Assembly: GCA_038065275.1 (NCBI GenBank)
Contig: JBBTRH010000002.1
Coordinates: forward strand, 34,756-98,755
DNA length: 64,000 bases
Origin: Patescibacteria group bacterium
GTDB lineage: Bacteria; Patescibacteriota; Patescibacteriia; SBBC01; CAIJZX01
Reading direction: 5' to 3'
Made by a program: the position numbers and the translations under genes. Positions 16,650 to 42,595 of the stretch are shown here, one piece after another. The notes under the pieces are model-generated. The model was not told the DNA's origin and made no database searches. It was given only the letters and a program-made list of their open reading frames with translations. The stretch's first letter is position 1; each line of letters starts with the position of its first letter.

Positions 16650-16723
16650 GAAAAATGTGTCTATGTCTCAGAGTAGCTTAAATGCGGGGGGAAGGCAATG
16701 AAATCGGCAAACGAATCGAAGTT

Positions 16724-16752
16724 TTGACAAAGAAACGAAAAAACAGCATAAT
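16724..16752 (+). promoter_or_regulatory. consensus sigma70 promoter (TTGACA-17-CATAAT) of gmd copy 1
   Basis: Exact -35, 17-nt spacer; nearly identical promoter plus leader repeated at 17868-17896. Confidence 0.65.
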
Positions 16753-16790
16753 GCCTGGGCTGTTTTTGTTTATACTTGTTTGGGAAATCT

Positions 16791-17810
16791 ATGAAAAAGG
16801 CGCTAATAACGGGAATCACCGGCCAGGACGGATCGTACCTGGCAGATTTGCTGTTACAAAAGGACTATGAAGTGCATGGTTTTGTTAGGCGTTCAAGTTC
16901 TTTGCAACGAGAACGGATTGACCATCTCTTGACTGAAAAAGGTAAAAAACGATTGCATTTACATTACGGCGATTTGAATGACAGCGAATCCATCCGACAG
17001 GTACTAAAAGCAGTTAAATTGGATGAGCTTTACCATCTCGGCGGGCAAAGCCATGTGAAGATCAGTTATGAAATGCCCGAATACACGACGGACGTTTCTG
17101 GTGTTAGTACATTAAGATTTCTAGAAGCCATTAGGGAAATCGGTCTACCGACAAAATTCTACCATTCGGCTTCCAGTGAAATGTTTGGTCGCGCAACGAC
17201 TGTGCCGCAAACCGAAACTACTCCGTTTCATCCGCAGAGCCCGTACGCCATTTCCAAAGTTTTTGGTTATTGGACTACGGTAAGTTACCGTGAAAATTAC
17301 CAGATGTTTTGCAGTAATGGCATTATGTACAACCATGAATCGCCGCGCCGCGGGGAAAATTTCGTGACCAGAAAAATTACGCTGTCGTTGAACAAAATCG
17401 TCCAGGGTAAACAAGAAAAACTATCGCTGGGGAATTTGGATGCGACGCGTGATTGGGGCTATGCGCCCGATTACGTCGAAGCCATGTGGCTTATATTGCA
17501 AGCAAACAAACCCGACGATTTTATAGTAGCCAGCGGTGAATCTCATTCAATTCGTGAATTCGTGGAAACGGCTACCGAATACATTAATATCGACATACAA
17601 TGGATTGGAAAGGGCGTAAACGAGCACGGGATTGACCGCCGCACGAGAAAAACCATTATCGATATTGATCCAGTGTTTTTTCGTCCAACCGAAATCGGTC
17701 AATTACAAGGAAATCCGGAGAAAATAAAGAAGGCGCTCGGTTGGAAACCGACAGTCGGTTTCAAAAAGCTTGTTCAGGTCATGATGGAAGCAGATCGCCA
17801 GCAAAAGTAA
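16791..17810 (+). CDS. gmd: GDP-mannose 4,6-dehydratase (copy 1)
   Basis: [22 protein letters not shown]...; SDR Rossmann; GMD motifs ([13 protein letters not shown]). Confidence 0.9.
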   Translation: MKKALITGITGQDGSYLADLLLQKDYEVHGFVRRSSSLQRERIDHLLTEKGKKRLHLHYGDLNDSESIRQVLKAVKLDELYHLGGQSHVKISYEMPEYTTDVSGVSTLRFLEAIREIGLPTKFYHSASSEMFGRATTVPQTETTPFHPQSPYAISKVFGYWTTVSYRENYQMFCSNGIMYNHESPRRGENFVTRKITLSLNKIVQGKQEKLSLGNLDATRDWGYAPDYVEAMWLILQANKPDDFIVASGESHSIREFVETATEYINIDIQWIGKGVNEHGIDRRTRKTIIDIDPVFFRPTEIGQLQGNPEKIKKALGWKPTVGFKKLVQVMMEADRQQK

Positions 17811-17867
17811 TGTTATTTAAATCCTACACCGGCAACAAAAGTCTGAACCATACAAAAAATCGACGTT

Positions 17868-17896
17868 TTGACAAAGCATCGAAAAAATAGCATAAT
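17868..17896 (+). promoter_or_regulatory. consensus sigma70 promoter (TTGACA-17-CATAAT) of gmd copy 2
   Basis: Duplicate of 16724-16752 including about 12 nt upstream and the 5' leader. Confidence 0.65.
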
Positions 17897-17934
17897 GCCG
17901 AGGCTATTTTTGTTTATTCTCGTTTTAGAAATTT

Positions 17935-18969
17935 ATGAAAAAAGCACTGATTACAGGAATTACGGGCCAGGATGGATCATATTTAGCCGAACTTCTTTTG
18001 GAAAAGGGCTACGAAGTCCATGGTATTGTTCGCCGATCATCGACGTTTAACACCGGTCGGCTTGATAACATATACCAGGACCCGCACGCACCTGATCGCC
18101 ACTTAATCCTCCATTACGGCGATTTGACGGACTCTTCAAACCTATTCCGAATTATTGAAAAAGCCAATCCCGATGAAATTTATAACCTCGGGGCGCAGAG
18201 CCACGTCCGAGTTAGTTTTGATATGCCGGAGTACACTGGCGATGCGGATGGCCTCGGCGTAACACGCTTGCTTGAAGCGATCCGCGAAACTCGCGTCAAG
18301 ACAAAGTTTTACCAGGCATCCTCCAGTGAAATGTTCGGAAAGGTTCGTGAAACTCCGCAAACAGAATTGACACCCTTTTACCCGCGCAGTCCGTATGGTG
18401 TAGCAAAGGTCTATGCCTATTGGATGACCGTCAACTTCCGCGAAAGTTACAATCTTTTTGCTTGCAACGGTATTTTGTTCAATCACGAATCTCCCCGCCG
18501 GGGCGAAACATTCGTGACCAGAAAAATTACCCAGGGCTTGTCGCGGATTAAAACTGGAAAACAAGATGTGCTCTACCTGGGTAACCTTGATGCCAAACGC
18601 GACTGGGGTTACGCCAAGGATTACGTGGAAGCGATGTGGCTGATGCTGCAACAACCTAAACCGGACGATTATGTTATCGCTACCGGCGAAACGCATTCAG
18701 TTCGCGAGTTTGTTGAAGAGGCTGGTCGGCATCTCGGTATGGATATCTTATGGCGAGGCGAAGGCATTAACGAAGAAGGTTTTGATAAAAAAACTGGAAA
18801 AACGATCATCAAAATTGATCCTAAATACTTCCGTCCGGCTGAGGTTGATCTGCTGATCGGCGATCCGGCGAAAGCAAAAAAGAAACTTGGCTGGACGCCG
18901 AAGATGACCTTTCAAGATTTGGTAAAATTGATGGTCGAGTCTGATTACCAAACTGAATTAAAAAAGTAG
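17935..18969 (+). CDS. gmd: GDP-mannose 4,6-dehydratase (copy 2, about 60% identical to copy 1)
   Basis: [22 protein letters not shown]...; same motifs ([13 protein letters not shown]). Confidence 0.9.
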
Positions 18970-18973
18970 CTGC

Positions 18974-19921
18974 ATGGAAAAGAATGCGAAAATTTATGTG
19001 GCCGGGCATCGTGGACTTGTCGGTTCGGCGTTAATTCGATACTTACAGGCGCAGGGTTATAGTAATTTGATCTGTCAGACAAGAGCAGAATTAGATTTGA
19101 TGGACTACTCAGCGGTTCAAAGATTTTTTAAAAAAGAAAAACCTGAATTCGTTTTTTTGGCCGCGGCTAAAGTCGGTGGGATTCATGCTAACAACACTCT
19201 CGGCGCGGATTTTATTTACGAAAACCTGACGATTCAAAATAACGTCATTAAATCTGCTCATGATTTTAAAACTAAGAAATTATTATTTTTGGGGAGCAGT
19301 TGCATTTATCCACGCGATTGTCCGCAACCAATAAAAGAAGAGTATTTTCTTGATGGTAAACCTGAACCCACGAACATTCCGTATGCGGCTGCGAAAATTG
19401 CTGGGATACTTATGTGCCAGGCATTCCACAAACAATACGGCGATAATTTCATCTCGGTCATGCCGACTAACCTTTATGGACCGAACGATAACTTTGATCT
19501 CGAAACATCGCATGTTTTTCCGGCTCTCATTCGTAAGTTCCACGAAGCGAAAGTTTCTCATTCACCCACGGTTACTGTTTGGGGTACGGGATCACCAAGA
19601 CGTGAATTTTTACATGTGGATGATTTAGCCGATGCCTGTATCCATTTGATGAAAACATACGACGACCCGTCAATCGTAAACATCGGAACTGGGGAGGATG
19701 TCAGCATCAAAGAATTTGCTGAAATAGTGAAAGAGGTTGTTGGTTACGTCGGTGAAATTGTATGGGATACGACCAAACCAGATGGAACGCCGAGAAAATT
19801 ACTTGATGTTTCGAAAATAAACTCTTTGGGATGGAGGGCGGAGATTCAACTTCGGAATGGCATAAACGAAACATATCAATGGTATCTCAACAACATTCAA
19901 CATGGCCGAGTATCAGGGTAA
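18974..19921 (+). CDS. fcl: GDP-L-fucose synthase (GDP-4-keto-6-deoxymannose 3,5-epimerase/4-reductase)
   Basis: Collinear with E. coli Fcl: [49 protein letters not shown]. Confidence 0.9.
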
Positions 19922-20738
19922 TACAATCGTAATCAAGCCAACAAAAGGATGGGTTTCCATTAACCTCCGTGAGTTATGGCGCTTTCGAGAATTGTTCTAT
20001 ATCTTTTCCTGGCGCGATTTTAAGGTTCGATATAAACAAACAATCATCGGGGTACTCTGGGCAATACTCCAGCCCTTCCTGATGATGGTGGTTTTTTCCA
20101 TTTTTTTTGGTCGTTTGGCCGGCATTTCAAGTAACGGGGTGCCCTATCCGATTTTTGTCTACTCAGGATTAATTTTTTGGAACTATTTTTCAACCGCGCT
20201 GATGGGTGCAAGCAATACACTAACGGACAACGAGAATATCGTAAAGAAAATCTACTTCCCTAGACTTTTACTTCCCTTTTCGGCGACCATTACCCCCCTG
20301 ATCGATTTCTTTTTTGCATTGTTGGTATTGGTGGGGATGATGGTGTACTACCATTCCGCTCCATCACTACTCACTGTTGTTCTATTGCCTCTGCTCCTGC
20401 TGTTGAGTTTTTTAGCAGCATCGGGGCTTGGATCGTTACTTTCGGCCATCAATGTTAGATTTCGGGACGTACGATATGCACTGCCTTTTCTAACACAGTT
20501 GTTATTCTTTGTAACACCAGTCATCTACCCTATTAGTATAGTACCCATTCAATACCATTGGGTGCTCAGTCTGAATCCGATGACAGGTATTATTAATACT
20601 GCTCGGGCGGTATTCTTACACCAAAGCACCATACCGTACACTGAACTTATCTACTCAACGCTGGTCATTATTGTACTCTTTATACATGGCCTATTCTACT
20701 TCCGCCGCACGGAAAAGATATTCGCGGATGTCGCCTGA
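19902..20738 (+). CDS. wzm: ABC-2 type polysaccharide export permease (Wzm-like)
   Basis: 278 aa, 6 TM helices; overlaps fcl stop; followed by ATPase. Confidence 0.8.
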
Positions 20739-20740
20739 TT

Positions 20741-21991
20741 ATGGAGCAAGCCATAATCTCAGCCCAAAATCTGTCGAAAGCGTACCGAATATCGCATCGC
20801 GCGTCATACGGAACATTACGTGATTCAATCTCTCAACTAGCAAAGAGACTACTCACCAAGACAGATCAACACGACACCGTTGAAGAGTACTGGGCATTAC
20901 GCGACATCAACTTTGATGTCCAGACCGGAGAATGCATCGGCATTATCGGGAAAAATGGGGCCGGCAAGAGCACACTACTCAAGATACTGTCACAAATCAC
21001 CTCGCCAACATCTGGCCAAGTGACCATCAACGGTCGGGTCGCGAGCTTGTTAGAGGTGGGAACTGGTTTTCACTCGGAACTCACAGGACGAGAAAATATT
21101 TTTTTGAACGGAGCGATTCTAGGTATGAAGCAGTCGGAGATTCGCAAGAAATTCGATGAAATTGTCGCCTTCGCAGAAGTTGAAAAGTTTCTTGATACGC
21201 CCGTCAAGCGCTATTCCAGTGGTATGTATGTACGTTTGGCTTTCGCCGTCGCTGCCCACCTCGAGCCGGAGATCCTTATTGTCGACGAGGTTTTGGCTGT
21301 TGGTGATGCGGAATTTCAAAAGAAGAGTTTGGGGAAAATGCGTGAGGTTAGTGAGCGGTCCGGTCGAACTGTCATTTTTGTTAGTCACAATATGGCCGCC
21401 ATACGGAAATTGTGCCAACGTGTATTGCTCCTAGATAAAGGACGAATCATCGCTTCAGGAAAAACCGATGCTATCATCACCCAGTATCTGCGACCTCAGC
21501 AAGAGTATCAATCTGAATCCTTATTTAATGACGACGCGCATGACGTTCAATTTCGCAGAGTTGCCACATTAAACATACATAATCAACCCGTTAGAGAATT
21601 CTCCTTCGGTGACAAGATTCTATTGCAAATAAATTTTGATGTAAAAAAGAAAATATTCTCGACTCTCATTATCGGTTTTGAAATATATAATGACGAAGGA
21701 TTGTGTATTTTTACCTCCACCAACGCTGATCAAAGTGGTGTACCAAAAAAAATTGGGGTTGGCAAGTTCCAGGCCAATATTTACATAGACACGCAACAGT
21801 TGCTCCGACCAGGAAATTTCACCCTAAACTTCCATGCGATCGTCCCAAATATCTGTATTATTGAAAATATTGAAGGAGAAATCGGCTTTTCAGTAATGGA
21901 TAGCAACGAGAACATTACCTCCAAACTTGGGTATATCAGACGAGGTGTTCTTGAACCAGTACTGCCCTGGAATATTCAGAAACTCTCCTAA
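20741..21991 (+). CDS. wzt: polysaccharide ABC transporter ATP-binding protein (Wzt-like) with C-terminal extension
   Basis: Walker A GKNGAGKST, ABC signature; about 170-aa C-terminal domain as in O-antigen-cap-binding Wzt. Confidence 0.85.
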   Translation: MEQAIISAQNLSKAYRISHRASYGTLRDSISQLAKRLLTKTDQHDTVEEYWALRDINFDVQTGECIGIIGKNGAGKSTLLKILSQITSPTSGQVTINGRVASLLEVGTGFHSELTGRENIFLNGAILGMKQSEIRKKFDEIVAFAEVEKFLDTPVKRYSSGMYVRLAFAVAAHLEPEILIVDEVLAVGDAEFQKKSLGKMREVSERSGRTVIFVSHNMAAIRKLCQRVLLLDKGRIIASGKTDAIITQYLRPQQEYQSESLFNDDAHDVQFRRVATLNIHNQPVREFSFGDKILLQINFDVKKKIFSTLIIGFEIYNDEGLCIFTSTNADQSGVPKKIGVGKFQANIYIDTQQLLRPGNFTLNFHAIVPNICIIENIEGEIGFSVMDSNENITSKLGYIRRGVLEPVLPWNIQKLS

Positions 21992-21994
21992 ACC

Positions 21995-23152
21995 ATGTTG
22001 GGCCTTCATTGGAAAACGCAACAGTCGTCAACAGCTACGACGATATCTCCCTCAAAAGACACAAGAATTGTGGGTCGAGTACTTGTTAGTTACCTTACCG
22101 AACCAGTTGAATGGCAGGATGCGGACCCACGTTTTCTCGGACACAGTAACCTATGGGAATCACGATCAATCATCCAGCAATTTCTTTCCTTGGGCTATGT
22201 GGTCGATACTATCAACTATACCGATACCGCCTTCCTACCGACTGAGCACTATGACACTGTCTTTGACATCTACACCAACCTCCAGCGGCTTGCTCCACAT
22301 CTGCCAACAACGACCATCAAGTTATTACACCTCACCGGAAGTTACGCGCCGTTTCAGAATCAGGCTGAACTCGGACGTGTACGTGAACTTGAGGAACGCC
22401 GAAAGTCCCACTATTCACCGAAACGTCTGGTTCGAGATGTTGAACTATTTGAGCGTTCACTCCAATTGGCTGACGCTTGTAGTTTGATTGGTAATGAGGT
22501 CACTCTTCGTACTTTCCCCGAAAACTACCGCCAGAAAATATCGCTGGTTACCGTCTCGGCAACAGCCCTCCCAACGACCAAGAACGATACAATGTTCGTT
22601 CCGAATCCGCGGGAATTCTTATGGTTTTTTGGTGGCGGGATGGTTCATAAGGGATTAGACTTGGTGCTCGAATCCTTCGCCCAGTACCCGAACGCGACAC
22701 TGCATATCATCGGCAACGTTGAAGTGGAAAAAGATTTTATCTCGATCTACCGCCATGAGTTGTTTGATACACCCAACATCCACTACCATGGATATATCCT
22801 ACCGCATACGGCTCAGTTCCGTGAAATTGCGAATCGGTGTGTAGCATTTTTGGCACCGAGTTGTAGTGAGTCGATCTCAACCGCCGCCGCGACGGTCATG
22901 CAATATGGTCTCTACCCATTGGTCAGCCGGGCCACCGGCATCACCTTACCGCCAAACAGCGGCATCTACCTCGAACACTGTTCCATCCCTGAAATCCGAC
23001 GTTGTATCCAGCAGGTTCAAGAGATGGAAGTTGAAGTTTTACGACAGCAAATACGTCGCACCCAACGGTTCGCCCTGGACCATTACTCACGGGACAACTT
23101 TACAATCAACATGCATACATATTTATCGACCCTTTTACCAAAACCCGCATGA
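21995..23152 (+). CDS. glycosyltransferase, GT1/GT4-like
   Basis: C-terminal region with GT4-like block (FFGGGMVHKGLDLVLESF...IIGN). Confidence 0.45.
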   Translation: MLGLHWKTQQSSTATTISPSKDTRIVGRVLVSYLTEPVEWQDADPRFLGHSNLWESRSIIQQFLSLGYVVDTINYTDTAFLPTEHYDTVFDIYTNLQRLAPHLPTTTIKLLHLTGSYAPFQNQAELGRVRELEERRKSHYSPKRLVRDVELFERSLQLADACSLIGNEVTLRTFPENYRQKISLVTVSATALPTTKNDTMFVPNPREFLWFFGGGMVHKGLDLVLESFAQYPNATLHIIGNVEVEKDFISIYRHELFDTPNIHYHGYILPHTAQFREIANRCVAFLAPSCSESISTAAATVMQYGLYPLVSRATGITLPPNSGIYLEHCSIPEIRRCIQQVQEMEVEVLRQQIRRTQRFALDHYSRDNFTINMHTYLSTLLPKPA

Positions 23153-24000
23153 GCAAGCCCAGTACCGAGTTTGGCTGGAAAGAAGAGGATTTCCAACTGT
23201 TGTTGGATACGTGCAAGTATGATGAAGAGGTCCAGATTGCGAAACGACACATCGAACTGCACGGCGGACAGGAGCAAAACATTCTTGAATTAGGTGCTGG
23301 TCTTGGTCGGATTGTGAAATATTTCAAGGATGAAGGGTATCAGAATATTCATGGTATTGAATTAAACGGAACGGCCGTGAAATATCTGAATGAAAAATAT
23401 CCCGAATTGGATGTTATCCAGGGAGATGTTCTTTCACTGCCCTATCCACCAGCCAGCTTTGATGTCGTACTCAGCTACGGGCTAGTCGAACACTTCATCC
23501 CTGGACTAGCCACACCGCTGAAAGCACATTTCGATGCTTTGAAACCAGGCAGCATCGCCGTCATCACCGTACCAAGTATGAATTTCATGCGAAGATTTGT
23601 TAATCGTTGCGGTAAAATATCGACAATTATTGACCCCCGAAAGAACGTTCTCGTTCGTAAGCTACTCAAGAAACCTGATTTCGCAAAAAGAAATGCGGGT
23701 GGTAAATTTCAGTACTATGTCCACCCACCATACGGAGATTTCTTTGAGTATCGACTCACTCCGAGAGAATATGAAACCGCCTGCAAAACCGCCGGGTTTA
23801 CTATTCTCGAGAGCACCCCGATCATGCATCCTGATGGTCTCTATCACTTGATTGGCTCAAGGTTGGGTATTATTCGTCACGAGAATCACCGATTCGTTGT
23901 CTCCTTACTCGGTAAAATCATAATCGCCACCTCAAAAAGAATAAGGTTTTTCAACAACCACATGCACCTCGTCGTCGTTCAAAAACCATTCACGTCATGA
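23149..24000 (+). CDS. class I SAM-dependent methyltransferase
   Basis: Motif I ILELGAGLGRI; motif post-I/II (DVIQGDVLSLPY, FDVVLSYGLVEHF); 4-nt overlap with upstream GT. Confidence 0.65.
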   Translation: MSKPSTEFGWKEEDFQLLLDTCKYDEEVQIAKRHIELHGGQEQNILELGAGLGRIVKYFKDEGYQNIHGIELNGTAVKYLNEKYPELDVIQGDVLSLPYPPASFDVVLSYGLVEHFIPGLATPLKAHFDALKPGSIAVITVPSMNFMRRFVNRCGKISTIIDPRKNVLVRKLLKKPDFAKRNAGGKFQYYVHPPYGDFFEYRLTPREYETACKTAGFTILESTPIMHPDGLYHLIGSRLGIIRHENHRFVVSLLGKIIIATSKRIRFFNNHMHLVVVQKPFTS

Positions 24001-25001
24001 ACCGAACCATGCGCAAAAGCATCGTCATCACATCTATCTTCCCGCCGTCACAGGCGGTTAAGGCGTTTGCAAGACAGGATGGTTGGAATCTGATCGTTGT
24101 CGGTGATAGGAAGAGTCCACACGATTGGCAGTGGAAGAATGTTACTTACCTTTCCCCAACTCGACAGACACAACTTGGCTATCGCCTGACCAAGCGGTTG
24201 CCCTGGAACCATTATGGCCGAAAGATGATTGGTTACCTCTACGCCATGGAGCACGGAGCTGAGATCATCGCCGACAGCGATGATGACAATGTGCCGAATT
24301 CGAACTGGGCATTACCGAAGTTCGCCGGACCATTCCCCACCATCAAACATGAAGGTTTTACGAACGTGTATTCATATTTCGGCGGCCAACATATCTGGCC
24401 ACGTGGATACCCACTGAATCAAATTCTTGAGCGCCGTGTACCTCATAGCATTGGGACTCGCCACCATAAAGTCGGTATTTGGCAGTATTTGGCTGATGGT
24501 GATCCCGATGTTGATGCTATCTATCGCCTGACCAGTAACCGACCATTCTTCTTCCGTTCGAAGAAACCGATTGTTTTAACCCCCGGAACGATCTGTCCGA
24601 TTAACTCCCAGAATACCTTCTTCACGGCTGCTACTTTCCCCTTATTGTACTTGCCCGCCTTTGTCACCTTCAGGTTTACCGACATCCTCCGCGGGCTTGT
24701 TGCCCAACCACTGTTGTGGTCACAGGGTTTGCGGGCCGGTTTCGGGCCAGCCAGTGTGACCCAGGAACGAAATCCGCATGACTACCTGAAGGATTTTATT
24801 TCTGAGATTCCGATATACCAGCATACCGAGGAAGTTATTGAGCTGACGAAACAGGCAACGACGCGAAAAGGCACGTTACACCAGAATCTCCTGCGAGTGT
24901 ACCAATTATTGAACGCTAACGGGATTGTCAGTACCGACGAACTGGTGCTACTCAAACTCTGGCTGGCAGACGTGGCTCATTTGCAACGATCGGTACGATG
25001 A
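23997..25001 (+). CDS. hypothetical protein (glycan-cluster associated)
   Basis: 334 aa, no motif recognised; translationally coupled to both neighbours. Confidence 0.3.
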   Translation: MNRTMRKSIVITSIFPPSQAVKAFARQDGWNLIVVGDRKSPHDWQWKNVTYLSPTRQTQLGYRLTKRLPWNHYGRKMIGYLYAMEHGAEIIADSDDDNVPNSNWALPKFAGPFPTIKHEGFTNVYSYFGGQHIWPRGYPLNQILERRVPHSIGTRHHKVGIWQYLADGDPDVDAIYRLTSNRPFFFRSKKPIVLTPGTICPINSQNTFFTAATFPLLYLPAFVTFRFTDILRGLVAQPLLWSQGLRAGFGPASVTQERNPHDYLKDFISEIPIYQHTEEVIELTKQATTRKGTLHQNLLRVYQLLNANGIVSTDELVLLKLWLADVAHLQRSVR

Positions 25002-26236: not shown

Positions 26237-27126
26237 ACCAGTCATCGCTCAACACACCATCAGCCGGTCAACCGAAGGTATCGGTCGTTATCGGTTCGTA
26301 CAACCGTTTGAACTTCCTCCGTTTGACGATCGACAGTGTCCGACGTGAATTGTCCGGTCATCCTCACGAGATTATTGTCGTCGACGGCGGATCGACCGAC
26401 CGAACTCTACCGTGGTTGATGAAGCAAAAAGACATCATCACGATTGTGCAACATAACCGCGGAACCTGGAACAAACATCCTATCCGTCGCCGATCGTGGG
26501 GATATTTTATGAACTTAGGTTTTAAGGCCGCCGAGGGAAAATATACATGCATGCTAAGTGATGATTGTCTTGTTGTTCCTGGTGCTATCATCAACGGGGT
26601 CAAGCATTTCGAACAACTCTTGGTCGCTGGACAACCGATCGGCGCGCTAGCGTTCTACTGGCGAAACTGGCCTGAGCAACAAAAATACTGGGTTGGATAC
26701 ACGCTCGGAGGTAAAATGTTCGTCAACCACGGGCTGTACCTACGCGATGCCATTCAACGAGTCGGGTTTATTGATGAACAGTATACGTTCTATCATGCTG
26801 ATGGCGATCTGTGCTTAAAACTTTGGCAAGCCGGATATGTTTGTGTTGATTCCCCAAGATCCTTCATCGAGCATTACTCCCACGCCAATAGTCAGGTTCG
26901 TGCCAGCAACAATGAAAAGCAACGTCAAGATTGGTCGGACTACATTACAAAATGGTCCGGTGTCTATTGGGTCCCGTCATCCCCCAACGAGGGTGGTTGG
27001 ATTGAGAAAGACTTCACCGATGTAACGCACACGGCTGATCGGCTACGAAGTCTTCATATGAAGAACACTTTCCACCAGCGATTAATAACTTTATCACTTC
27101 GACTATTTCATAACCGTAATTCATAA
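26218..27126 (+). CDS. glycosyltransferase family 2
   Basis: VSVVIGSYNRLNFLRLTIDSV...VVDGGSTD (GT2 N-terminal DxD region). Confidence 0.65.
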   Translation: MSQSSMNQSSLNTPSAGQPKVSVVIGSYNRLNFLRLTIDSVRRELSGHPHEIIVVDGGSTDRTLPWLMKQKDIITIVQHNRGTWNKHPIRRRSWGYFMNLGFKAAEGKYTCMLSDDCLVVPGAIINGVKHFEQLLVAGQPIGALAFYWRNWPEQQKYWVGYTLGGKMFVNHGLYLRDAIQRVGFIDEQYTFYHADGDLCLKLWQAGYVCVDSPRSFIEHYSHANSQVRASNNEKQRQDWSDYITKWSGVYWVPSSPNEGGWIEKDFTDVTHTADRLRSLHMKNTFHQRLITLSLRLFHNRNS

Positions 27127-27154
27127 TCTTAATTCATCACGTCTCGCGATCCTT

Positions 27155-35402: not shown

Positions 35403-35476
35403 ACGTTACAGAGCTCTACGTTTGAATAAGGTGATTGCGACGGCAGACCAATCATGGTAGCACGGAATACAGTATC

Positions 35477-36985
35477 TCATGGCGAACGCGGTCGAGAAAG
35501 GGGTCGGTACACTTCGGCTGACTGATTAGCGTATTCCAAAGTAAATCTGTTCGTCGCTTTGACGAGCCGACTGAGTTCGCTGAATTTTTTTCCGTCGATA
35601 TCACCGATCGTAATAAATAACATAGAGATATCGTTGTCTGCCAGCCAGTTCGCGTCGGTCAGTACACCACGACTTATGTCTTGGTGTATAAAAAGGCGGT
35701 TAGAAATAGAAACATCAAACGGCGCGATTTCTGAAATATTTCCCAGCACAATACTGCCTACCGTCGAGTTATCTTTTATGAATTTGAGGGCAGCAACTTG
35801 GTCGGGCCCTACGAAATTCGTATGAGCGGCAACGTACGAATTCGTCTGCACCGCATAGATAACAGCTTGGGATAATATGATACATACGATTAACGGCCTA
35901 AGGAACTTGCTCATCCTAGTTGTACACAGAATATAATGCAGCCCGATTACTACAACAATGATCAATCCGGGCCAGACCATATACAAGAAACGACCGTAGT
36001 AGAAATAGATTCCTAGATATGCGAGTAAGGTCAGTGATATCCCGACCAGGGTCCAGACTACTGCCGGACTGAGGATCCGCGTTGAACTCCTCTTCTTCAT
36101 GGTTCTCAGGAGATAGACGAATGCAAACAAGAACAAGACAATATTGATTTCGCGGAGGTTGGTAATATATTGCTCAAAGACAATTTTTTGTGCAAACCTA
36201 TCACCCGAAATGGCATCGCTGTTGTGATAATTGTAGATGATCATCGATCGTACTATCGGAACCAGCTTCATCAGCGCACCCGCAACGAGAACCCCGATCA
36301 GCAACATGATTTTTTTATTTATTGGTTTGAGTAGCGACCACCATGAGCTGGCGCGAAGACCGACAATGATCATCATGGCGACCACGAAATAGATGAACGA
36401 CAATGATCGGTGAGTGAAGTAGAGACTGACTAAAACAATAACCAGCACCGACCATGATCGAGGTCGTATCGGGAGGCAATAGAATGTTAGAGCGACCAGC
36501 AGGATGTTGATGAACCCCAGAAAATTTGCGATGGTAGAGCTGTTAAATAAGAAAAACAATCCATAAAAATTTAATCCAAGAACCGTCCCTACTACTTGAA
36601 TTGCCTGACTACCAGTACTTCGACCAATGACGATACCAAGCAACACGAGCATTTCCATGACCAGGATCATTTGGAGGGTAGAAAAGAGGGGGTACTCGAT
36701 GTCCAAACCGGTCAGACGGTTCAACACAACCAATAACAAGCTGTTGACCGGACTTTCATACATCGGTCTTCGAACATAGGCGTTGTTGTTGTCCGTCGGC
36801 AACCGTCCGCCGTGGTTAAGAATGAACCGAGCATCGAGTATGTACACACTTGAATCACCTCCGGGTGGTGTACCGGCCTTGAGACTCAAACCAAAGATAG
36901 TCGCAATGAGCGCGATGCTGCACACCAACACCGCCCCGAAAAGCCAATTGGATGGTGTTTGTCGATGGTTATGAATACTGTTCAT
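35477..36985 (-). CDS. polytopic membrane protein with C-terminal soluble domain (candidate GT-C-like transferase or polymerase)
   Basis: 502 aa, at least 10 hydrophobic helices followed by about 120-aa hydrophilic tail; no catalytic motif recognised. Confidence 0.4.
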   Translation of the reverse strand: MNSIHNHRQTPSNWLFGAVLVCSIALIATIFGLSLKAGTPPGGDSSVYILDARFILNHGGRLPTDNNNAYVRRPMYESPVNSLLLVVLNRLTGLDIEYPLFSTLQMILVMEMLVLLGIVIGRSTGSQAIQVVGTVLGLNFYGLFFLFNSSTIANFLGFINILLVALTFYCLPIRPRSWSVLVIVLVSLYFTHRSLSFIYFVVAMMIIVGLRASSWWSLLKPINKKIMLLIGVLVAGALMKLVPIVRSMIIYNYHNSDAISGDRFAQKIVFEQYITNLREINIVLFLFAFVYLLRTMKKRSSTRILSPAVVWTLVGISLTLLAYLGIYFYYGRFLYMVWPGLIIVVVIGLHYILCTTRMSKFLRPLIVCIILSQAVIYAVQTNSYVAAHTNFVGPDQVAALKFIKDNSTVGSIVLGNISEIAPFDVSISNRLFIHQDISRGVLTDANWLADNDISMLFITIGDIDGKKFSELSRLVKATNRFTLEYANQSAEVYRPLSRPRSP

Positions 36986-38087
36986 AGACCTTCAATGTCT
37001 GCCGAGCACATCGTTCCCAAGAGTATTTTTGTATTTCAATATCACGGGCCGCGATAAGATCACCCCTTTTCACTTCGGTATTGACCGTCCGCATCGCTTC
37101 GGTACAGAGCTCATGACGATGAGGATCGAAATACAGGGCTGCTGGCCCGGCAATTTCCCGGATTACTGGAATGTCTGAACAAATAATCGGGCACCGACAG
37201 GCCATCGCCTCGACAACTGGCAAGCCAAATCCTTCGTGCCACGATGGGAAGATCAGGGCCCGTGCATTCGCATAGAAAAAGGGTAAGTCAATGTCTTCGA
37301 CTTTTGCCAGCCACCGAATATCGTCCGCAAATGGAGACGTTTTCATCGCTTGTTCGATGGCCTGATATTTCCATCCTAAACGTCCGATGATGAAGAGTTG
37401 GGCCATCGATCCGCCGTGACGATAATCGTTGAAGGCGGCGATCAATGTGGTTAAGTTTTTTCGCGGTTCGATGGTACCCACGAAAAGAAAATATGGGGTA
37501 TCGATGTGATACCGTTTGAGAAAATCCTGGTTATTCTGTGAATCGAGTTCCAGCGGATGGAAACGTTCGGGGTCGTGCGCCAATGTCGTCACATGAATCT
37601 TACGAGCATCGACGTGATACTGCTCGACGATCTCGCGTTTACTCGTTTCACTGATAGTGATGATTGCGTCGAGGTTATTGAGGATCAGACGAACACCGAT
37701 GGTGTTGCGCCACCGGTTGGCAGTGGTCACGAACTGCGGATAGCGCATGGGTGATAGATCGTAGATTGTTTCTATCGCCACATACGGCTGTGCGGAAAAG
37801 AACGGTCCAACTTGAGCTAAGTCATGGACCACATCGAAATTGTATTGCCGAAGCGCCCGACCAAGGGTGATTTTTCGTAGCTCGCGACCGAGCGGAACGT
37901 GCGGTGACGGAATAACAATATGTTGGATGTGACCACGGTAGAGTTCATCGTCAATCTCCTTCTCGTGGATGAGGACATACTCATTCTTCCTATCAACCTT
38001 GGTCAAATTTGTAACCAGGTTCCGGATATACCGTCCGATCCCGGCGGCCTGATAATCCAGTGAATCTGTGATTAATCCAATTTTCAT
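36969..38087 (-). CDS. glycosyltransferase family 1
   Basis: GT4 C-terminal block PSWHEGFGLPVVEAMACRCPIICSDIPVIREI. Confidence 0.7.
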   Translation of the reverse strand: MKIGLITDSLDYQAAGIGRYIRNLVTNLTKVDRKNEYVLIHEKEIDDELYRGHIQHIVIPSPHVPLGRELRKITLGRALRQYNFDVVHDLAQVGPFFSAQPYVAIETIYDLSPMRYPQFVTTANRWRNTIGVRLILNNLDAIITISETSKREIVEQYHVDARKIHVTTLAHDPERFHPLELDSQNNQDFLKRYHIDTPYFLFVGTIEPRKNLTTLIAAFNDYRHGGSMAQLFIIGRLGWKYQAIEQAMKTSPFADDIRWLAKVEDIDLPFFYANARALIFPSWHEGFGLPVVEAMACRCPIICSDIPVIREIAGPAALYFDPHRHELCTEAMRTVNTEVKRGDLIAARDIEIQKYSWERCARQTLKVYEQYS

Positions 38088-38115
38088 GTGGGGATGGTCA
38101 AGCTGGTCACGAATA

Positions 38116-38472
38116 TCATTTCTTTCGGTTCCGGTGCATCACACGTCCAGTGACAATACCAAGCGCCGCCATCACCACGACCGTGACAACGGCCGATTCG
38201 ACTGAGATACCGATACCCAATTTATTTTCGAATAAGATGGTCAACGGCATCACCACGACTGACAGTGCGATCGATATGACACAGCGTTCAAACAAGGTGA
38301 CGCTCCGATTCTCCCAAAGCACAAAACTCCAGACGTACCCTGGCAGGAATAGGATGGCGGTAAAGCCACCGACGATTCGCAGGGACTCGAATGGTGGATA
38401 CCAGCGTAATAGAACCAGAACTGCACAGAGTAGAACGGATGTGAGCACGATGAGTTGTTTGGGGAGCGTCAT
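38116..38472 (-). CDS. small hypothetical membrane protein
   Basis: 118 aa, 3-4 hydrophobic helices. Confidence 0.3.
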   Translation of the reverse strand: MTLPKQLIVLTSVLLCAVLVLLRWYPPFESLRIVGGFTAILFLPGYVWSFVLWENRSVTLFERCVISIALSVVVMPLTILFENKLGIGISVESAVVTVVVMAALGIVTGRVMHRNRKK

Positions 38473-38476
38473 ACAA

Positions 38477-39652
38477 TTACTTCAACCGGTGGGTAGTGCC
38501 CGTGTTCGCTTCCATGGTTGTCACCGGCCGACGGTCGATTACCTCGGAATAGATACGGACAAAATTTGCAATCGTGTTCTCCCAAGGAAATGTTTTTCTC
38601 GGCAGGTGAAGCCACTGACCTTGTGACGCCGCGATGATGGCTTGGGCACATGCTCGGATATCACCTGGCGAAAAGAATACTACCCGTCCCGAAACAACTT
38701 CCGGCAATGAAGCGGCCTGACTCACCACGACCGACTGCCCAAGCAAACAGGCCTCGGCGGCACTAAAACCAAACCCTTCGGAAAGGGATGGGACGATGAC
38801 GGTATCGGCCGCGAGAATATGGCTCGCCAACTGGTCCCTAGGACACGACGGTACTATCGTCACCTGCTCCTGCAGGTGGAGCTCCTGGAGCAGATGAATG
38901 ATCTGCTGATAACGATCGAGCGGATTCTTCGAGAGCTGCAGGACGAATTTCAGGTTTGGACGTTCACGAATAGCCAGGGCGAAACCTTGCACCGCAATCT
39001 CGATCCCTTTCGCCCATCCTGGGCGGCCAAAATACAGCAGCACGAAGTCCGTCGTTTCCGTCCGCCACTCGCGCCTGATCGTTTCTCGAGTGATGGTTGG
39101 ATCGGCGGCCGGAATTGCTACTCCGTGGTAAACGACTTCTGGATGGTACTTTGGATTAGCCCGCTTGACCGCCTCAGCGGTGTGCTGCGACCCGACGACC
39201 ACTCTGGCATACGGCAAGCTGTAGATGAACCGTTCATACAGCCCATGGAGCCACGCGGACCACCATGGCATGCTGGGTAACATTCGCCACAGATCAATCC
39301 AAACCTCCTGGATGGAAAGTACTACGGGACGGCGAAATACGGTGGCCACCAGCCAGCCAGGCCAAGCCGCATTATACGTCGTCGTATGAACTACGTCTGC
39401 TTTCCGAATAGCCGGCCAGATGAACAGCGGAGCGAAGAAAGTGAAGAAATATCGCTGACCAATAGGCGGAACCGACAAACGGATGATCCTAACGCCGCTG
39501 CGCGTTTCGTTTCGTAGGGTATTTGGTAGGCGCGATGTATAGACCACAACCGAGTGGCCGAGCTTGACCATCGCTTCGGCGACGGTCTGGAACAGTGTTT
39601 CTACGCCACCAACGTGCGGGTAGTAGTACTCGAGGACGTAGACTATCTTCAC
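38477..39652 (-). CDS. glycosyltransferase family 1
   Basis: MKIVYVLEYYYPHVGGVE; C-terminal PSLSEGFGFSAAEACLLGQSVVVS. Confidence 0.7.
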   Translation of the reverse strand: MKIVYVLEYYYPHVGGVETLFQTVAEAMVKLGHSVVVYTSRLPNTLRNETRSGVRIIRLSVPPIGQRYFFTFFAPLFIWPAIRKADVVHTTTYNAAWPGWLVATVFRRPVVLSIQEVWIDLWRMLPSMPWWSAWLHGLYERFIYSLPYARVVVGSQHTAEAVKRANPKYHPEVVYHGVAIPAADPTITRETIRREWRTETTDFVLLYFGRPGWAKGIEIAVQGFALAIRERPNLKFVLQLSKNPLDRYQQIIHLLQELHLQEQVTIVPSCPRDQLASHILAADTVIVPSLSEGFGFSAAEACLLGQSVVVSQAASLPEVVSGRVVFFSPGDIRACAQAIIAASQGQWLHLPRKTFPWENTIANFVRIYSEVIDRRPVTTMEANTGTTHRLK

Positions 39653-39656
39653 TGCC

Positions 39657-39980
39657 TCAATCCTTTGATAACGCTATTTTTCGTACCAGCTCCTCGAGTC
39701 GTTTATCAGTTCGACGAACGACGACGTAATTCCGAAACGTCGCGCCGAAGAGTAATAAGATACCGCCAGCCGTGAGCAAATCAAAAGCACGGGTGAAATG
39801 TAACTTTTCGATAACGAATTTTGTCGGCCCGGGGAACAGTACGACAACCGCTAGACCTAGCCAGATCACCTGCCAAAAAGCGAATTCCCACAAGGAGAAT
39901 TCGCGTCGTCGGTAATGCAGAAAGGAAAAATAGGTCATCCATAACACGAACAGGAGAGCAATAATCTGAATGATGTTCAT
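39657..39980 (-). CDS. small membrane protein (DUF2304-like companion of polyprenyl-phosphate GT2)
   Basis: 107 aa, 3 TM helices, 4-nt overlap with upstream GT2. Confidence 0.45.
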   Translation of the reverse strand: MNIIQIIALLFVLWMTYFSFLHYRRREFSLWEFAFWQVIWLGLAVVVLFPGPTKFVIEKLHFTRAFDLLTAGGILLLFGATFRNYVVVRRTDKRLEELVRKIALSKD

Positions 39981-40660
39981 AGGATCTTCCAGGCCAGGAT
40001 ATTAATCATGATGCGAATCCCATCAATGACCGTCGTGCCCTTATACCGATCATGGTAGATGGTCGTGATCGGGACTTGAACGAAGGGTACATGATGTTTT
40101 CCGGTGTTGACGATCATCTCCGTTTCGACTGCGTACCGGGGTGACTGCCAAGCAATTTTCTCAAAGGCAGAAATCTTCAAAGCACGGAAACCGGATTGCG
40201 AGTCATCGACCTGGATTCGGTAGAGAACTTGCATGGCCTTCGTCAGGAGATGGTTCCCAGCCCGAGCGATCAACGGCATACGACCATGGAATTCTCTCAC
40301 CCCAAAAACTATTTCGGCCCGCTGTTCGAGTATCGGCCGAAGTAAACTGGGAATTTCCTTCGGGTCATGTTGACCATCAGCATCAATGAACACCACGGCC
40401 TCATAGCCATGGTCGATCGCCCACATCACTCCGGTTTTCAATGCTGCCCCCTTTCCCAGATTGATGGTGTGACGAAGAATTGTTATTGCGGGGTTACTGT
40501 CGAGCTGCTCCCGAAGTGGTTCGCGCGATCCATCATCAACGACCACGATGTGATCAACGAAGGGAAGTACTTCACGGTTGACACCCTGCAGCCGATCAAA
40601 TTCATTAAACGCCGGAATGATGGCGATGGTCTTCATAACGCGGTTTTCGCCCAGGCCCAC
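39977..40660 (-). CDS. glycosyltransferase family 2, polyprenyl-phosphate sugar synthase (DPM1/GtrB-like)
   Basis: IAIIPAFNEFDRL...VVDDGS; about 230 aa size typical of Dpm1-like enzymes. Confidence 0.75.
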   Translation of the reverse strand: MGLGENRVMKTIAIIPAFNEFDRLQGVNREVLPFVDHIVVVDDGSREPLREQLDSNPAITILRHTINLGKGAALKTGVMWAIDHGYEAVVFIDADGQHDPKEIPSLLRPILEQRAEIVFGVREFHGRMPLIARAGNHLLTKAMQVLYRIQVDDSQSGFRALKISAFEKIAWQSPRYAVETEMIVNTGKHHVPFVQVPITTIYHDRYKGTTVIDGIRIMINILAWKIL

Positions 40661-41553
40661 GTTGTTCGTAAACCGTGATCAATGTGTACTTTCGGTTTCC
40701 ACGTTAGTTGTTTCCTTGCCAATGCCCACGATAACGAGCTCTTGGATACTTCGCCCGCTGGCGCCAAACGATGCTTGACCGGTAAGGTAATACCCGAAAC
40801 CTTCATCATGGTCCGGACCAGGTCGTTCACCGACGTCTGGACGGCCGTTCCGATATTGATCTGCCCACCGATCTGCGGATACTTCATGGCTAACAAATTT
40901 ACTTGCACGACGTCAGATACATGCACATAATCTCTCGTTTGCCGACCATGGCCAAAGATGATCGGCGGTTTCCCATGGAGTAGACGTTCGGCAAAAACAG
41001 CCACCACCCCTGCCTCGCCCTTCGGATCCTGACGCGGTCCATAGACATTAGCATACCTAAGCGAGACACTGTTTAGTCCCCGATTGAGGAGATAAAAATT
41101 CAAATATTGTTCGACGGTAAACTTGGCGATGCCGTACGGTGATTCCGGCCGCGGGGGTACTGTTTCGGGAGTCGGCCTGGGGACATTGTCACCGTACAAT
41201 GCGCCGCCGGTTGAAGAAAAAATGAATCTCTTCACGCCAAAGCGTCGGCTCTGTTCAATGACGTTGAGCGACCCGGCAATATTCACGTCCGCGTCGAACA
41301 ACGGATCATCGACCGACATCCGAACATTCTTTTGGGCGGCCAGGTGAAAGACGAATTGCGGACGGACGCGGCGGAAAACGTCCTTTATCCGCGGTGAGCG
41401 GATGTCTTTGCGGAAGAACTCAACACCGGCTGGCACATTCTGCCGTTTACCAGTGGACAGGTTGTCAACAACGGCCACCTTATGCCGCTTAGCAACTAGG
41501 GCATCGACCAGATGACTTCCTATGAAGCCGGCACCGCCGGTAACAAGAATGCG
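40633..41553 (-). CDS. NAD-dependent epimerase/dehydratase (UDP-sugar 4-epimerase-like)
   Basis: Probable start MARILVTGGAGFIGSHL; YGIAK catalytic motif. Confidence 0.7.
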   Translation of the reverse strand, partial: RILVTGGAGFIGSHLVDALVAKRHKVAVVDNLSTGKRQNVPAGVEFFRKDIRSPRIKDVFRRVRPQFVFHLAAQKNVRMSVDDPLFDADVNIAGSLNVIEQSRRFGVKRFIFSSTGGALYGDNVPRPTPETVPPRPESPYGIAKFTVEQYLNFYLLNRGLNSVSLRYANVYGPRQDPKGEAGVVAVFAERLLHGKPPIIFGHGRQTRDYVHVSDVVQVNLLAMKYPQIGGQINIGTAVQTSVNDLVRTMMKVSGITLPVKHRLAPAGEVSKSSLSWALARKQLTWKPKVHIDHGLRTTWAWAKTAL

Positions 41554-41560
41554 GGCCATG

Positions 41561-42595
41561 CTATCCTTGGTCTCCAAACCCGAGCGACGCGAGGCCGACC
41601 TGACGCAACCCCCGCATATAATCAATCGTCCGCCGCAGTCCTTCTTCCAGCGGCACCACCGGAAACCAACCCAGCAATTCGCGGGCCTGGCGGACGCTGG
41701 GGGTGGCTTGCTTGGCGTCGTACGGCAGGGGCGGCTCCATCCGGAAATCAGGCCGCGAACCGGTCAGGGCGACTACCTGTTCAGCGATTTGTCCGACGGT
41801 GTGCTCTTCCGGATGTCCGATATTGATCGGTCCGGGTTCTTTCGACGACATCATCCGCGTCAATCCTTCCAGCGCGTCGGAGACGAAACAGTAGGTCGCC
41901 ACGTCCTCTTTACTGCCATGAATGGCGATCGGCAGGTTCTTGATGGCCATGCCGATGAACTCCGGAATCATCCGCCCGTCGTTGAGCCGCATCCGCGGGC
42001 CGTAGGTGTTGAACAGGCGGACAATCTTCGCTTCCAATTTAAATCGCGTCCGATACGCGACGGTCAGGGCTTCGGCAAAACGTTTGCCTTCCTGGTACGG
42101 ACTGCGGACCCCGATCGGGTTAACGTAGCCGAAATAGTTTTCCGGGAACGGCGTTTTCTCGACCGGTTCGCCGTAGGTCGAGCCGCTCGAGACGAGTAAA
42201 AATTTCGCGCTGAACTGCTTCGTCAGGTCGAGGGCGTTTTTGGTGCCGAGGGCGTTCGCCAGGAGCGTTTCGACGGTCAGCCTGGTGTAATCCTTCGGCG
42301 ACGATGGCGAGGCCAGGTGGTAAATCTCCTGGACGCCCTGGAACGGCACCTGGAAGGCCTTCAGTTCGCGTAGGGCGGCCAGATCGATCGGTTCGGCCAT
42401 ATCGTGCCGGACAAACTCAAAGTTGGGATTGGACAGCAAATGGTGGATATTCTGTTCATCGCCGGTGCTGAAGTTGTCGATGCAAATGACCTTATGGCGC
42501 TGGACCAGGATGTCGCACAGGTGCGAGCCTAAAAACCCCGCCCCACCGGTAATTACTATATTCTTTTTTTCAAATGCGGCCGAGCGTGTAGCCAT
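41561..42595 (-). CDS. UDP-glucuronate decarboxylase (UDP-xylose synthase)-like SDR
   Basis: ITGGAGFLGSHLCD...VICIDNFSTG block characteristic of UXS family; YQEGKR. Confidence 0.7.
   Translation of the reverse strand: MATRSAAFEKKNIVITGGAGFLGSHLCDILVQRHKVICIDNFSTGDEQNIHHLLSNPNFEFVRHDMAEPIDLAALRELKAFQVPFQGVQEIYHLASPSSPKDYTRLTVETLLANALGTKNALDLTKQFSAKFLLVSSGSTYGEPVEKTPFPENYFGYVNPIGVRSPYQEGKRFAEALTVAYRTRFKLEAKIVRLFNTYGPRMRLNDGRMIPEFIGMAIKNLPIAIHGSKEDVATYCFVSDALEGLTRMMSSKEPGPINIGHPEEHTVGQIAEQVVALTGSRPDFRMEPPLPYDAKQATPSVRQARELLGWFPVVPLEEGLRRTIDYMRGLRQVGLASLGFGDQG

Follow-up and report, generated by a model that had tools for sequence, protein, structure and literature searches.

Hypervariable glycosyltransferase (GT) genes grouped in "metagenomic islands" are familiar from the population-genomics and phage-predation literature on free-living bacteria and archaea, and a role of methyltransferases in capping an exported glycan is known from WbdD/Wzt. 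In Salmonella the O-antigen clusters are low in guanine plus cytosine (GC) in segments, a pattern interpreted as transfer and recombination in the flanks (PMC3715488). GacI/GacJ of streptococci and PpgS/Rv3632 of mycobacteria make GlcNAc-P- or GalNAc-P-polyprenol, with the small protein of each pair stimulating the family 2 glycosyltransferase (GT2) (10.1101/180810). Here we describe a surface-glycan locus with the same GC pattern, for which we favour the same interpretation, in a member of the candidate phyla radiation (CPR). It lies in a window of 64 kb, the whole stretch of contig JBBTRH010000002.1 that was analysed.

A two-change-point maximum-likelihood fit on G+C delimits a low-GC block at 16,260-41,124 of the window (48.0% GC vs 59.3% outside; log-likelihood gain 384). 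With a probability of about 0.6 we take this block to be the variable core of a position-fixed surface-glycan locus in Kerfeldbacteria-like CPR, replaced or imported by homologous recombination in its flanks from relatives of lower GC. The alternative that survives best, which we consider unlikely, is vertical inheritance, in which the locus has always been present and stays AT-richer than a GC-drifting genome through a locus-specific bias with no transfer needed; such a bias could stem from weaker GC-biased conversion or from selection acting on how membrane and glycan genes are expressed or translated.

The locus was compared with four relatives: relative A (a 68-kb Logan contig), relative B (a 979-kb Joint Genome Institute (JGI) contig, 3300050184; L008/L009, L092; also present as a 97-kb Logan contig), relative C (GCA_016193315.1, an 857-kb contig that holds one side of the locus) and a fourth, a 140-kb contig compared by its gene table only. 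In 4/4 a glycan locus occupies the same site between the same flanking genes (50-83% backbone identity). The shared order on the left is pilM/N, pyrG, L9, ctpA, murA, a PEGA protein, a GT-C (PMT_2) enzyme, a small protein and a surface protein of 5xx amino acids (aa), and that on the right is DUF2304, GT2, a GalE-like short-chain dehydrogenase/reductase (SDR), a UXS-like SDR, GT2, GtrA, an S8 peptidase, a PDZ protein and onward. The three right-most genes of the block (epimerase, GT2 and DUF2304) are positionally conserved in all relatives. Between the flanks the middle genes vary and core gene content is nearly wholly different from one relative to another, which vertical inheritance with a compositional bias would not predict. 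Because the relatives share the flanks on both sides as well as the last three genes, we regard the block as the variable core of a locus of fixed position. The original prediction had described an island embedded in the backbone; since the site holds a glycan locus in all four relatives, with conserved edge genes, the block is not a mobile island in a naive site. Relative B has a GC content of ~45% compared with 59% in the window and its backbone proteins are 42-86% identical, a large divergence in GC across one conserved gene order.

The core is set apart from its surroundings in GC, codon usage and tetranucleotides. Divided at gene borders, GC is 58.3% over 1-16,650, 48.2% over 16,651-41,560 and 59.8% over 41,561-64,000, and a 1-kb profile runs at 42-53% across ~16.5-41 kb and at 54-67% outside. 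The original prediction had placed a drop at ~16.7 kb and a recovery at ~41.6 kb, coordinates that are correct within ~0.4 kb; the contrast it gave, 45% vs 60%, is real and was slightly overstated in size (~48% vs ~59%). GC at third codon positions (GC3) averages 0.52 (range 0.40-0.62) in the 26 genes inside and 0.73 (0.57-0.80) in 27 backbone genes (Mann-Whitney p = 7e-10). Synonymous codon usage differs between block and backbone (summed chi-square 1026, 41 degrees of freedom), and a leave-one-out codon likelihood ratio is below 0 in 26/26 inside genes, so that usage across the window is not uniform. This ratio switches sign between two abutting genes, from -0.04 in 40633-41559 to +0.15 in 41561-42595. 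The sliding-window GC shift is accompanied by one in tetranucleotides, whose GC-normalised correlation with the backbone in 4-kb windows goes from 0.85-0.93 outside to 0.65-0.76 in the block.

The two edges differ in form. On the left the change is abrupt at ~16,400, where a 200-nucleotide (nt) profile passes from 0.55-0.64 to 0.40-0.43 within a single open reading frame (ORF), 15657-16649, which has 58.4% GC over 15657-16399 and 43.6% over 16400-16649. The right edge is graded, with GC3 of 0.53-0.62 in the last four genes (38.5-41.56 kb), and the stretch at 10.9-16.6 kb is intermediate (GC3 0.64-0.68). Rim genes are nearer to host GC than core genes, as expected under recombination in the flanks, a gradient that vertical inheritance does not explain. 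Glycan genes of host-like GC extend past the block on both sides, with a GT-C gene at 11398-13083 and genes for a UXS-like epimerase, a GT2 and a GtrA protein at 41561-44152. Recursive segmentation divides the block itself into 16,276-22,225 at 44.1% GC and 22,226-41,525 at 49.4%, distinct sub-segments that again sit poorly with vertical inheritance. At least three compositional segments make up the mosaic of the core, and the deviant composition is that of a core whose history differs from that of its flanks.

At the left edge the window holds ~1.5-1.6 kb (15193-16649) that is absent from the relatives, where the gene for the 5xx-aa surface protein abuts the first glycan gene. The ORF 15657-16649 in this segment encodes a 330-aa truncated paralogue of the neighbouring 548-aa surface protein (50% identity over 252 aa to its residues 227-477); a scan of species-representative genomes with it returned no relatives and it is not on record in the other assemblies in which it was looked up. 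The same segment contains a G+C-rich, repeat-like non-coding stretch at 15.19-15.35 kb. A 57-aa ORF at 15346-15519, HicB/antitoxin-like by eye, was rejected as such, having no Pfam support at E <= 0.1. Immediately inside the block are two GDP-mannose 4,6-dehydratase genes, gmd1 and gmd2, whose products are 58% identical. Each is preceded by an 81-nt promoter-leader cassette, with a GCCnnGGCT-T-rich stretch after the promoter, and the two cassettes are identical at 68/81 positions (84%) compared with 64% for the gmd coding sequences. The cassette pattern occurs twice in the window where 0 occurrences are expected and was not found in any fetched relative. The truncated paralogue, the two divergent gmd genes and the duplicated leaders could be recombination scars, that is traces of cassette joining, and they too tell against vertical inheritance.

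The kinship of the locus genes would likewise fit exchange among related lineages. The product of gmd1 is 66% identical to that of the relative A gmd at the same position, and the locus of relative B starts gmd-fcl-wzm-wzt like that of the window (86/83/65/59% aa identity, the 86 being to gmd2) and contains a gene 65% identical to the SDR at 30396-31388. The flanking UXS-like SDR (41561-42595) is 74-87% identical in the relatives. The GT2 and DUF2304 genes fall into two deep allele classes, in which the window pairs with B (69% and 90%; DUF2304 90-91%) and A with C (63% and 58%), with cross-class identities of 27-35% (27% for DUF2304 between window and A). In quartets of ten backbone proteins C was the most distant and the window, A and B were not separated. 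For these two genes in the four genomes compared, the classes conflict with the backbone, which suggests either that alleles have been exchanged at the locus or that an old polymorphism has persisted there, and which counts against strictly vertical descent. As to where the core may have come from, the closest Wzm/Wzt exporters in JGI metagenomes are 61-75% identical and lie on contigs of 30-37% GC (one of 50%), those of wzm being 73-75% identical on contigs of 36-37% GC. Several of these contigs are large and CPR-like and some have gmd-fcl upstream; remote homologues of the left-flank genes of the window stand beside wzm/wzt in some low-GC CPR contigs. The nearest relatives found for the locus genes are other CPR-like genomes, mostly of lower GC, and not members of a distant phylum. 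Relative B was rejected as a recent donor, as DNA identity is only ~70%.

Vertical inheritance draws on the synteny of the locus in all relatives and on the GC3 profiles of these relatives. Relative A, with a backbone GC3 of 0.64-0.73, has its drop at the same gene boundary as the window, from 0.73 in the UXS-like SDR to 0.55 in the GalE-like SDR, and on the other side of the locus from 0.64 to 0.47-0.53; in relative C the drop is small, and in relative B (GC3 0.30-0.47) there is none. Low GC of polysaccharide genes is moreover widespread and incompletely explained (PMC3715488). Several observations weigh against import of the core. That several lineages show the GC drop at one and the same place may reflect a locus-specific bias and not repeated import. 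By GC-normalised tetranucleotides the block is nearest to Kerfeldbacteria, with r = 0.83 for its own backbone, 0.85 for the glycan genes of relative A and 0.40-0.56 for CPR contigs of 33-36% GC, as would be retained under vertical inheritance; under import, this signature implies sources in related lineages of moderately lower GC, or long residence of the cassette. No recent donor or near-identical cassette was found, the best matches to locus genes being 59-91% at the aa level and ~70% at the nt level, and because of this transfer is inferred and not observed in progress. The backbone quartets do not order the window, A and B, and strong incongruence is limited to GT2/DUF2304. The left junction lacks independent support, an independent contig beginning exactly at the left edge (16,597), and searches of the window found no priming phosphoglycosyltransferase, no ligase and no attachment enzyme of the LCP type. 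We nevertheless retain replacement of the core by recombination in the flanks as the preferred reading, and cassette exchange between lineages by this route, by analogy with enterobacterial O-antigen loci, would fit the data. The horizontal acquisition put forward in the original prediction is partly supported, by composition, codon usage and discordant gene history; the data do not favour a mobile island or a distant source.

The provenance of the DNA was also considered. Placement of the host rests on source names, as homologues of the S8 peptidase and of murA carry the name Candidatus Kerfeldbacteria. A scan of species-representative genomes with an alignment of the GalE-like epimerase, whose patterns are too generic to discriminate, gave, among the matches listed, 45-52% identical epimerases of unrelated phyla and no Kerfeldbacteria. 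Identical proteins occur in Hainich groundwater assemblies (ERR3858126; ERZ1292631 'Hain_H32_02um'), and the murA protein is identical to one on a 117.6-kb contig of an NCBI metagenome-assembled genome labelled Patescibacteria group bacterium. An independent contig from ERR3858126 (Logan) of 25,685 nt corresponds to window 16,597-42,281 with one mismatch. Its start at the left edge, together with the assembly of the backbone as a separate 6.7-kb contig, could suggest a chimera in which a contig of a lower-GC population was joined during assembly or binning to a high-GC Kerfeldbacteria contig. We hold this to be very improbable, as the independent contig crosses the right compositional boundary by 720 nt into the host-like SDR gene with no mismatch there, the gene order over both junctions is that of the four relatives, and the flanks of the relatives, at ~70-77% DNA identity, are too dissimilar for a k-mer-based mis-join. 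The assembly break at the left edge of the cassette may instead reflect strain variation in the cassette.

Least probable of all is a classical mobile island or O-antigen cluster inserted from a distant diderm phylum into a formerly empty site, which the strong contrast in composition and codon usage, the presence of Wzm/Wzt, GT11 and gmd/fcl typical of Gram-negative O-antigen clusters and the resemblance of Wzt to a presumed Aquifex aeolicus exporter might suggest, but for which there is no empty site in any relative, no mobility domain such as an integrase or a transposase among the ORFs scanned across the window, no tRNA or flanking direct repeat at the block edges (the only tRNA of the window is at 61.3 kb), and instead closest Wzm/Wzt and gmd/fcl genes on CPR-like contigs with the same neighbour genes and a Kerfeldbacteria-like tetranucleotide signature.

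Table 1. Positions of the features of the glycan locus and its flanks within the window (TM, transmembrane; SAM, S-adenosylmethionine; ABC, ATP-binding cassette)
Feature	Position	Strand	Basis or remark
Conserved left flank, intermediate GC	10940..15192	-	same gene order in relatives
Left flank: 160-aa protein		-	
Left flank: GT-C (PMT_2)	11398-13083	-	
Left flank: 4-TM protein	13040-13570	-	
Left flank: single-pass 548-aa surface protein	13546-15192	-	
Truncated single-pass paralogue (330 aa) of 548-aa surface protein	15657..16649	-	one N-terminal TM segment
Left compositional boundary	16260..16650	.	GC change point 16,260, in 5' part of ORF 15657-16649
Promoter-leader cassette copy 1, before gmd1	16713..16793	+	TTGACA-17-CATAAT; 11/12 promoter match
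gmd1, GDP-mannose 4,6-dehydratase	16791..17810	+	TIGR01472 488 bits (cut-off 415)
Promoter-leader cassette copy 2, before gmd2	17857..17937	+	TTGACA-17-CATAAT
gmd2, GDP-mannose 4,6-dehydratase	17935..18969	+	TIGR01472 590 bits (cut-off 415)
fcl, GDP-L-fucose synthase	18974..19921	+	NF047922 488.8 bits, marginally under cut-off 500
wzm, ABC-2 permease	19902..20738	+	PF01061
wzt, ABC ATPase with C-terminal carbohydrate-binding domain	20741..21991	+	PF00005; PF14524 Wzt_C
GT-B glycosyltransferase, weak GT1 match	21995..23152	+	PF13692/PF00534 at cut-off
SAM-dependent methyltransferase	23149..24000	+	PF08241 54 bits
STELLO-like glycosyltransferase	23997..25001	+	PF03385 45 bits
GT4 glycosyltransferase	24998..26236	+	PF00534 100 bits
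GT2 glycosyltransferase	26233..27126	+	PF00535; start from independent gene call
GT2-methyltransferase fusion gene	27155..28627	+	PF00535 107 bits; PF13489 23 bits, under cut-off
Methyltransferase-like ORF, weak	28646..29344	+	PF13578 25.5 bits, just under cut-off 26.3
GT11, alpha-1,2-fucosyltransferase family	29358..30236	+	PF01531 111.8 bits (cut-off 23.9)
SDR sugar-nucleotide epimerase/dehydratase	30396..31388	+	PF01370; no NCBIfam equivalog reached
GT4 glycosyltransferase, last gene of plus-strand operon	31390..32559	+	stop overlaps convergent gene by 4 nt
GT4 glycosyltransferase	32556-33644	-	family match and gene call
GT2 glycosyltransferase	33641-34606	-	family match and gene call
GT2 glycosyltransferase	34596-35402	-	family match and gene call
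GT-C fold membrane glycosyltransferase, 502 aa, rare family	35477..36985	-	alignment-based structure model
GT4 glycosyltransferase	36969..38087	-	family match
118-aa protein, four TM segments, DUF1616-like	38116..38472	-	PF07760 39 bits
GT4 glycosyltransferase	38477..39652	-	family match
DUF2304 small membrane protein, GacJ/Rv3632 family	39657..39980	-	PF10066 78.6 bits
GT2, polyprenyl-phosphate-sugar synthase type (PpgS/GacI/AglJ-like)	39977..40636	-	PF00535
GalE-like UDP-hexose 4-epimerase, last low-GC gene	40633..41559	-	TIGR01179 190.8 bits (cut-off 262); GC3 0.60
Conserved right flank, host-like GC	41561..44152	-	GC3 0.74-0.78
Right flank: UXS/ArnA-like SDR	41561-42595	-	
Right flank: GT2	42792-43496	-	
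Right flank: GtrA-family protein	43550-44152	-	

Two operons that converge make up the block, one on the plus strand (16791-32559) and one on the minus strand (41559-32556; Table 1). The tight coupling by 4-nt overlaps that had been noticed in the sequence is found at eight gene junctions, and Pfam and NCBIfam searches bear out the predicted inventory of two gmd genes, fcl, wzm/wzt, GT11, two epimerases/dehydratases, GT2+DUF2304 and a polytopic protein. Three methyltransferases had been listed as well; three methyltransferase-like ORFs are present, two of them under the Pfam gathering cut-off. In total we counted 13 cytoplasmic GT-A/GT-B glycosyltransferases including GT11 and the STELLO-like enzyme. 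The GDP-L-fucose pathway and a fucosyltransferase-family enzyme are both represented in the block, with Gmd, Fcl (marginally sub-cut-off) and GT11 all present, and manB/manC were found nowhere in the 64 kb.

In the plus-strand operon wzm and wzt are spaced by 2 nt. The Wzt_C domain scores 35.1 bits vs a cut-off of 30.4 over residues 267-366, and the best solved relatives of Wzt are the 404-residue "ABC transporter" chains 8dku/7k2t (E 5e-66, query residues 48-363), which we take to be the O-antigen exporter Wzt of Aquifex aeolicus; the alignment extends beyond the nucleotide-binding domain. The solved relatives of Wzm/Wzt together are O-antigen (presumably), teichoic-acid and galactan exporters. 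No match to Polysacc_synt/Wzx or Wzy/Wzy_C Pfam families was found in the ORFs of 16.7-41.6 kb, where the sole large polytopic protein has a GT-C fold. From its exporter pair, the Wzt_C domain and the lack of Wzx/Wzy the locus is predicted to be of the ABC-transporter-dependent (Wzm/Wzt) type. Further downstream the GT2-methyltransferase fusion gene is split in the window, where an in-frame TAA stands at 28001-28003. The independent contig reads GAA at 28001 with an intact 490-aa product, the sole difference across 25.7 kb, and the TAA would be either a population polymorphism inactivating or uncoupling the enzyme or a consensus error.

The minus-strand operon contains the polytopic protein of 502 aa, which matches no Pfam or NCBIfam family, relaxed Pfam thresholds included, and has no significant match in the PDB by sequence or family profile. 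An exhaustive search of 1.84 billion clustered proteins found only 24 cluster representatives of its family (E <= 1e-3), of which 5 match DUF6541 weakly, and a metagenome scan returned no relatives. A single-sequence AlphaFold model was unusable (pLDDT 45) and is superseded by one from the 24-sequence alignment (pLDDT 86.5) that has a GT-C fold with a C-terminal domain resembling that of archaeal AglB. WaaL (7tpg) was rejected as a structural match (E 0.67, not significant). The WWDxG motif that true oligosaccharyltransferases (PglB/AglB/STT3) have in their C-terminal domain is absent from the protein. D44, in a PPGxD motif just after helix 14-32 in the first extracytoplasmic loop, is invariant across the 24 family members and is the putative catalytic residue. 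Homologues of the 118-aa protein sit just upstream of wzm in three CPR contigs (L096, L101 and L102), and we infer from this protein and its four TM segments a candidate flippase for a lipid-linked sugar. The GT2 and DUF2304 genes at the end of the operon are adjacent, co-oriented and overlap by 4 nt. The best NCBIfam matches of the GT2 are below their cut-offs (AglJ 90 bits, cut-off 325; PpgS 87.5, cut-off 370), and it is of the PpgS/GacI type in its pairing and not an equivalog of either.

Judged from family assignments, Gmd and Fcl would supply GDP-L-fucose and the ~13 cytoplasmic GT-A/GT-B enzymes including GT11 would assemble a polymer, carried on polyprenyl, at the inner membrane face. 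The priming enzyme is presumably encoded elsewhere in the genome, there being no match to PF00953 or PF02397 (WecA/MraY-type and WbaP-type primers) in the 60 window ORFs scanned; in E. coli the wecA primer lies outside such clusters. The methyltransferases could alter the polymer or cap it. Neither a kinase nor a coiled-coil domain of a WbdD-like terminator was seen with the three methyltransferase-like ORFs, one of which is GT2-fused. Wzm/Wzt would then export the polymer, the C-terminal domain of Wzt probably recognising the finished, capped chain. Outside the membrane the glycan or its acceptor may be glycosylated further from polyprenyl-phosphate sugars, with the GalE-like epimerase and the GT2/DUF2304 pair making the donor, the 118-aa protein possibly flipping it and the GT-C enzyme at 35477-36985 as the likely transferase. 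The GT2, the GtrA protein and the PMT_2-type GT-C enzyme of the conserved flanks may constitute a second module of the same logic.

CPR bacteria are considered to lack an outer membrane and lipopolysaccharide (LPS), and because of this an O-antigen in the strict sense of LPS, as the original prediction had offered, is unlikely; nor was a WaaL/Wzy_C-type ligase found in the window. An ABC-exported wall-, lipid- or protein-linked glycan is more likely, and possibly an S-layer glycan. A bolder scheme, which we put forward as speculation and think improbable, is a CPR-specific surface glycosylation in which the rare GT-C enzyme, with its oligosaccharyltransferase-like fold and AglB-like C-terminal domain, decorates the fucose polymer, methyl-capped and exported by the ABC transporter, or couples it to an acceptor that is a protein or part of the wall, the cassette being a "serotype" module traded among Kerfeldbacteria lineages ~15% apart in GC. 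Candidate acceptors would be the neighbouring PEGA, S8/FG-GAP and 548-aa surface proteins, and such a module, if real, could set the host-attachment or phage specificity of these episymbiont-like cells.

The CPR/Patescibacteria cell surface is little known and is the point of contact with host cells and phages. Kerfeldbacteria reserve one chromosomal position for a large glycan cassette that can probably be exchanged, with the compositional signature and likely exchange mechanism of the O-antigen and capsule loci of cultured bacteria, so that a principle well known from the latter reaches into an uncultured radiation. As flanking markers for glycan typing in metagenomes, the UXS-like SDR and the gene for the 5xx-aa surface protein could be used, and the enzymes of the rare GT-C family and of the GT2+DUF2304 module lend themselves to testing. 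What we consider noteworthy is the conserved slot across Kerfeldbacteria, the two GT2/DUF2304 allele classes and the rare GT-C family; the locus is otherwise an expected feature and implies no new mechanism.

Comparison with the relatives also brought out other variable and conserved spots in the window. A second small low-GC patch (~52%) lies at 1823-3556 between the pilus genes and rpmA, and contains ORF 2350-3024, a 224-aa orphan with island-like codon usage, no Pfam match and no counterpart in relatives A/B. Between the PEGA protein and the GT-C gene, 10300-11000 is a variable site with two ORFs of no family (10355-10660 and 10675-10989; 51-52% GC); in relative A the site is taken by an NHL-repeat protein of 664 aa and in relative B by small ORFs. 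The most DNA-conserved stretch of the window is 49110-49502 (89% to relative A and 84% to B; neighbours 65-77%), which had no match in Rfam (49.1-49.5 kb) and includes a 66-aa treble-clef zinc-finger ORF (49154-49354, minus strand); a HhH-GPD glycosylase gene that stands beside this stretch in the relatives is missing from the window. An Amidase_3 gene (55324-56178) and a family-less 336-aa ORF (57249-58259) have no counterpart in the syntenic regions of relatives A/B, and GC3 is lower at 56.5-58.3 kb (0.57-0.68).

Among known systems the enterobacterial O-antigen (rfb) clusters, for example that of Salmonella enterica, resemble the block in their fixed site, variable content, segmented low GC and a rim nearer to host GC. 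Their flanks are of the galF/gnd type, whereas here they consist of type IV pilus genes, murA, GT-C and S8 peptidase genes, and O-antigen clusters differ further in that the host here is a CPR bacterium and that searches of the window gave no WaaL, no WecA/WbaP primer and no kinase/coiled-coil terminator like WbdD. The ABC-dependent clusters of the E. coli O8/O9a type share with the block a Wzm/Wzt pair with a C-terminal carbohydrate-binding domain, nucleotide-sugar genes and many glycosyltransferases, and by analogy the methyltransferases, here potential chain cappers, may be common to both.

The rhamnose-rich wall polysaccharides of streptococci and lactococci, such as the Group A carbohydrate (gacA-L), are made inside a monoderm cell and exported by an ABC transporter, and are decorated outside from a polyprenyl-phosphate sugar made by GacJ-activated GacI and transferred by a GT-C enzyme (10.1101/180810). 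The block differs in having fucose and no rmlABCD rhamnose pathway, no Wzx-type flippase (GacK) and no LCP ligase that could be seen, a GT2 that is no GacI/PpgS equivalog and a GT-C enzyme of an unrelated rare family; it is like the gac locus in its GT2+DUF2304 pair, 2.7 kb from which the same operon encodes a GT-C enzyme. Mycobacterial PpgS (Rv3631)/Rv3632 with a GT-C enzyme, which place galactosamine on arabinogalactan, offer a similar parallel, although the PpgS score here is far below cut-off and both acceptor polymer and organism differ. With regard to the metagenomic islands, our comparison is between lineages at 50-83% protein identity and not within a population, and the likeness lies in an assembly break at the cassette edge, common where populations differ, and in an envelope-glycan cassette that varies by lineage, has deviant GC and occupies a conserved site.

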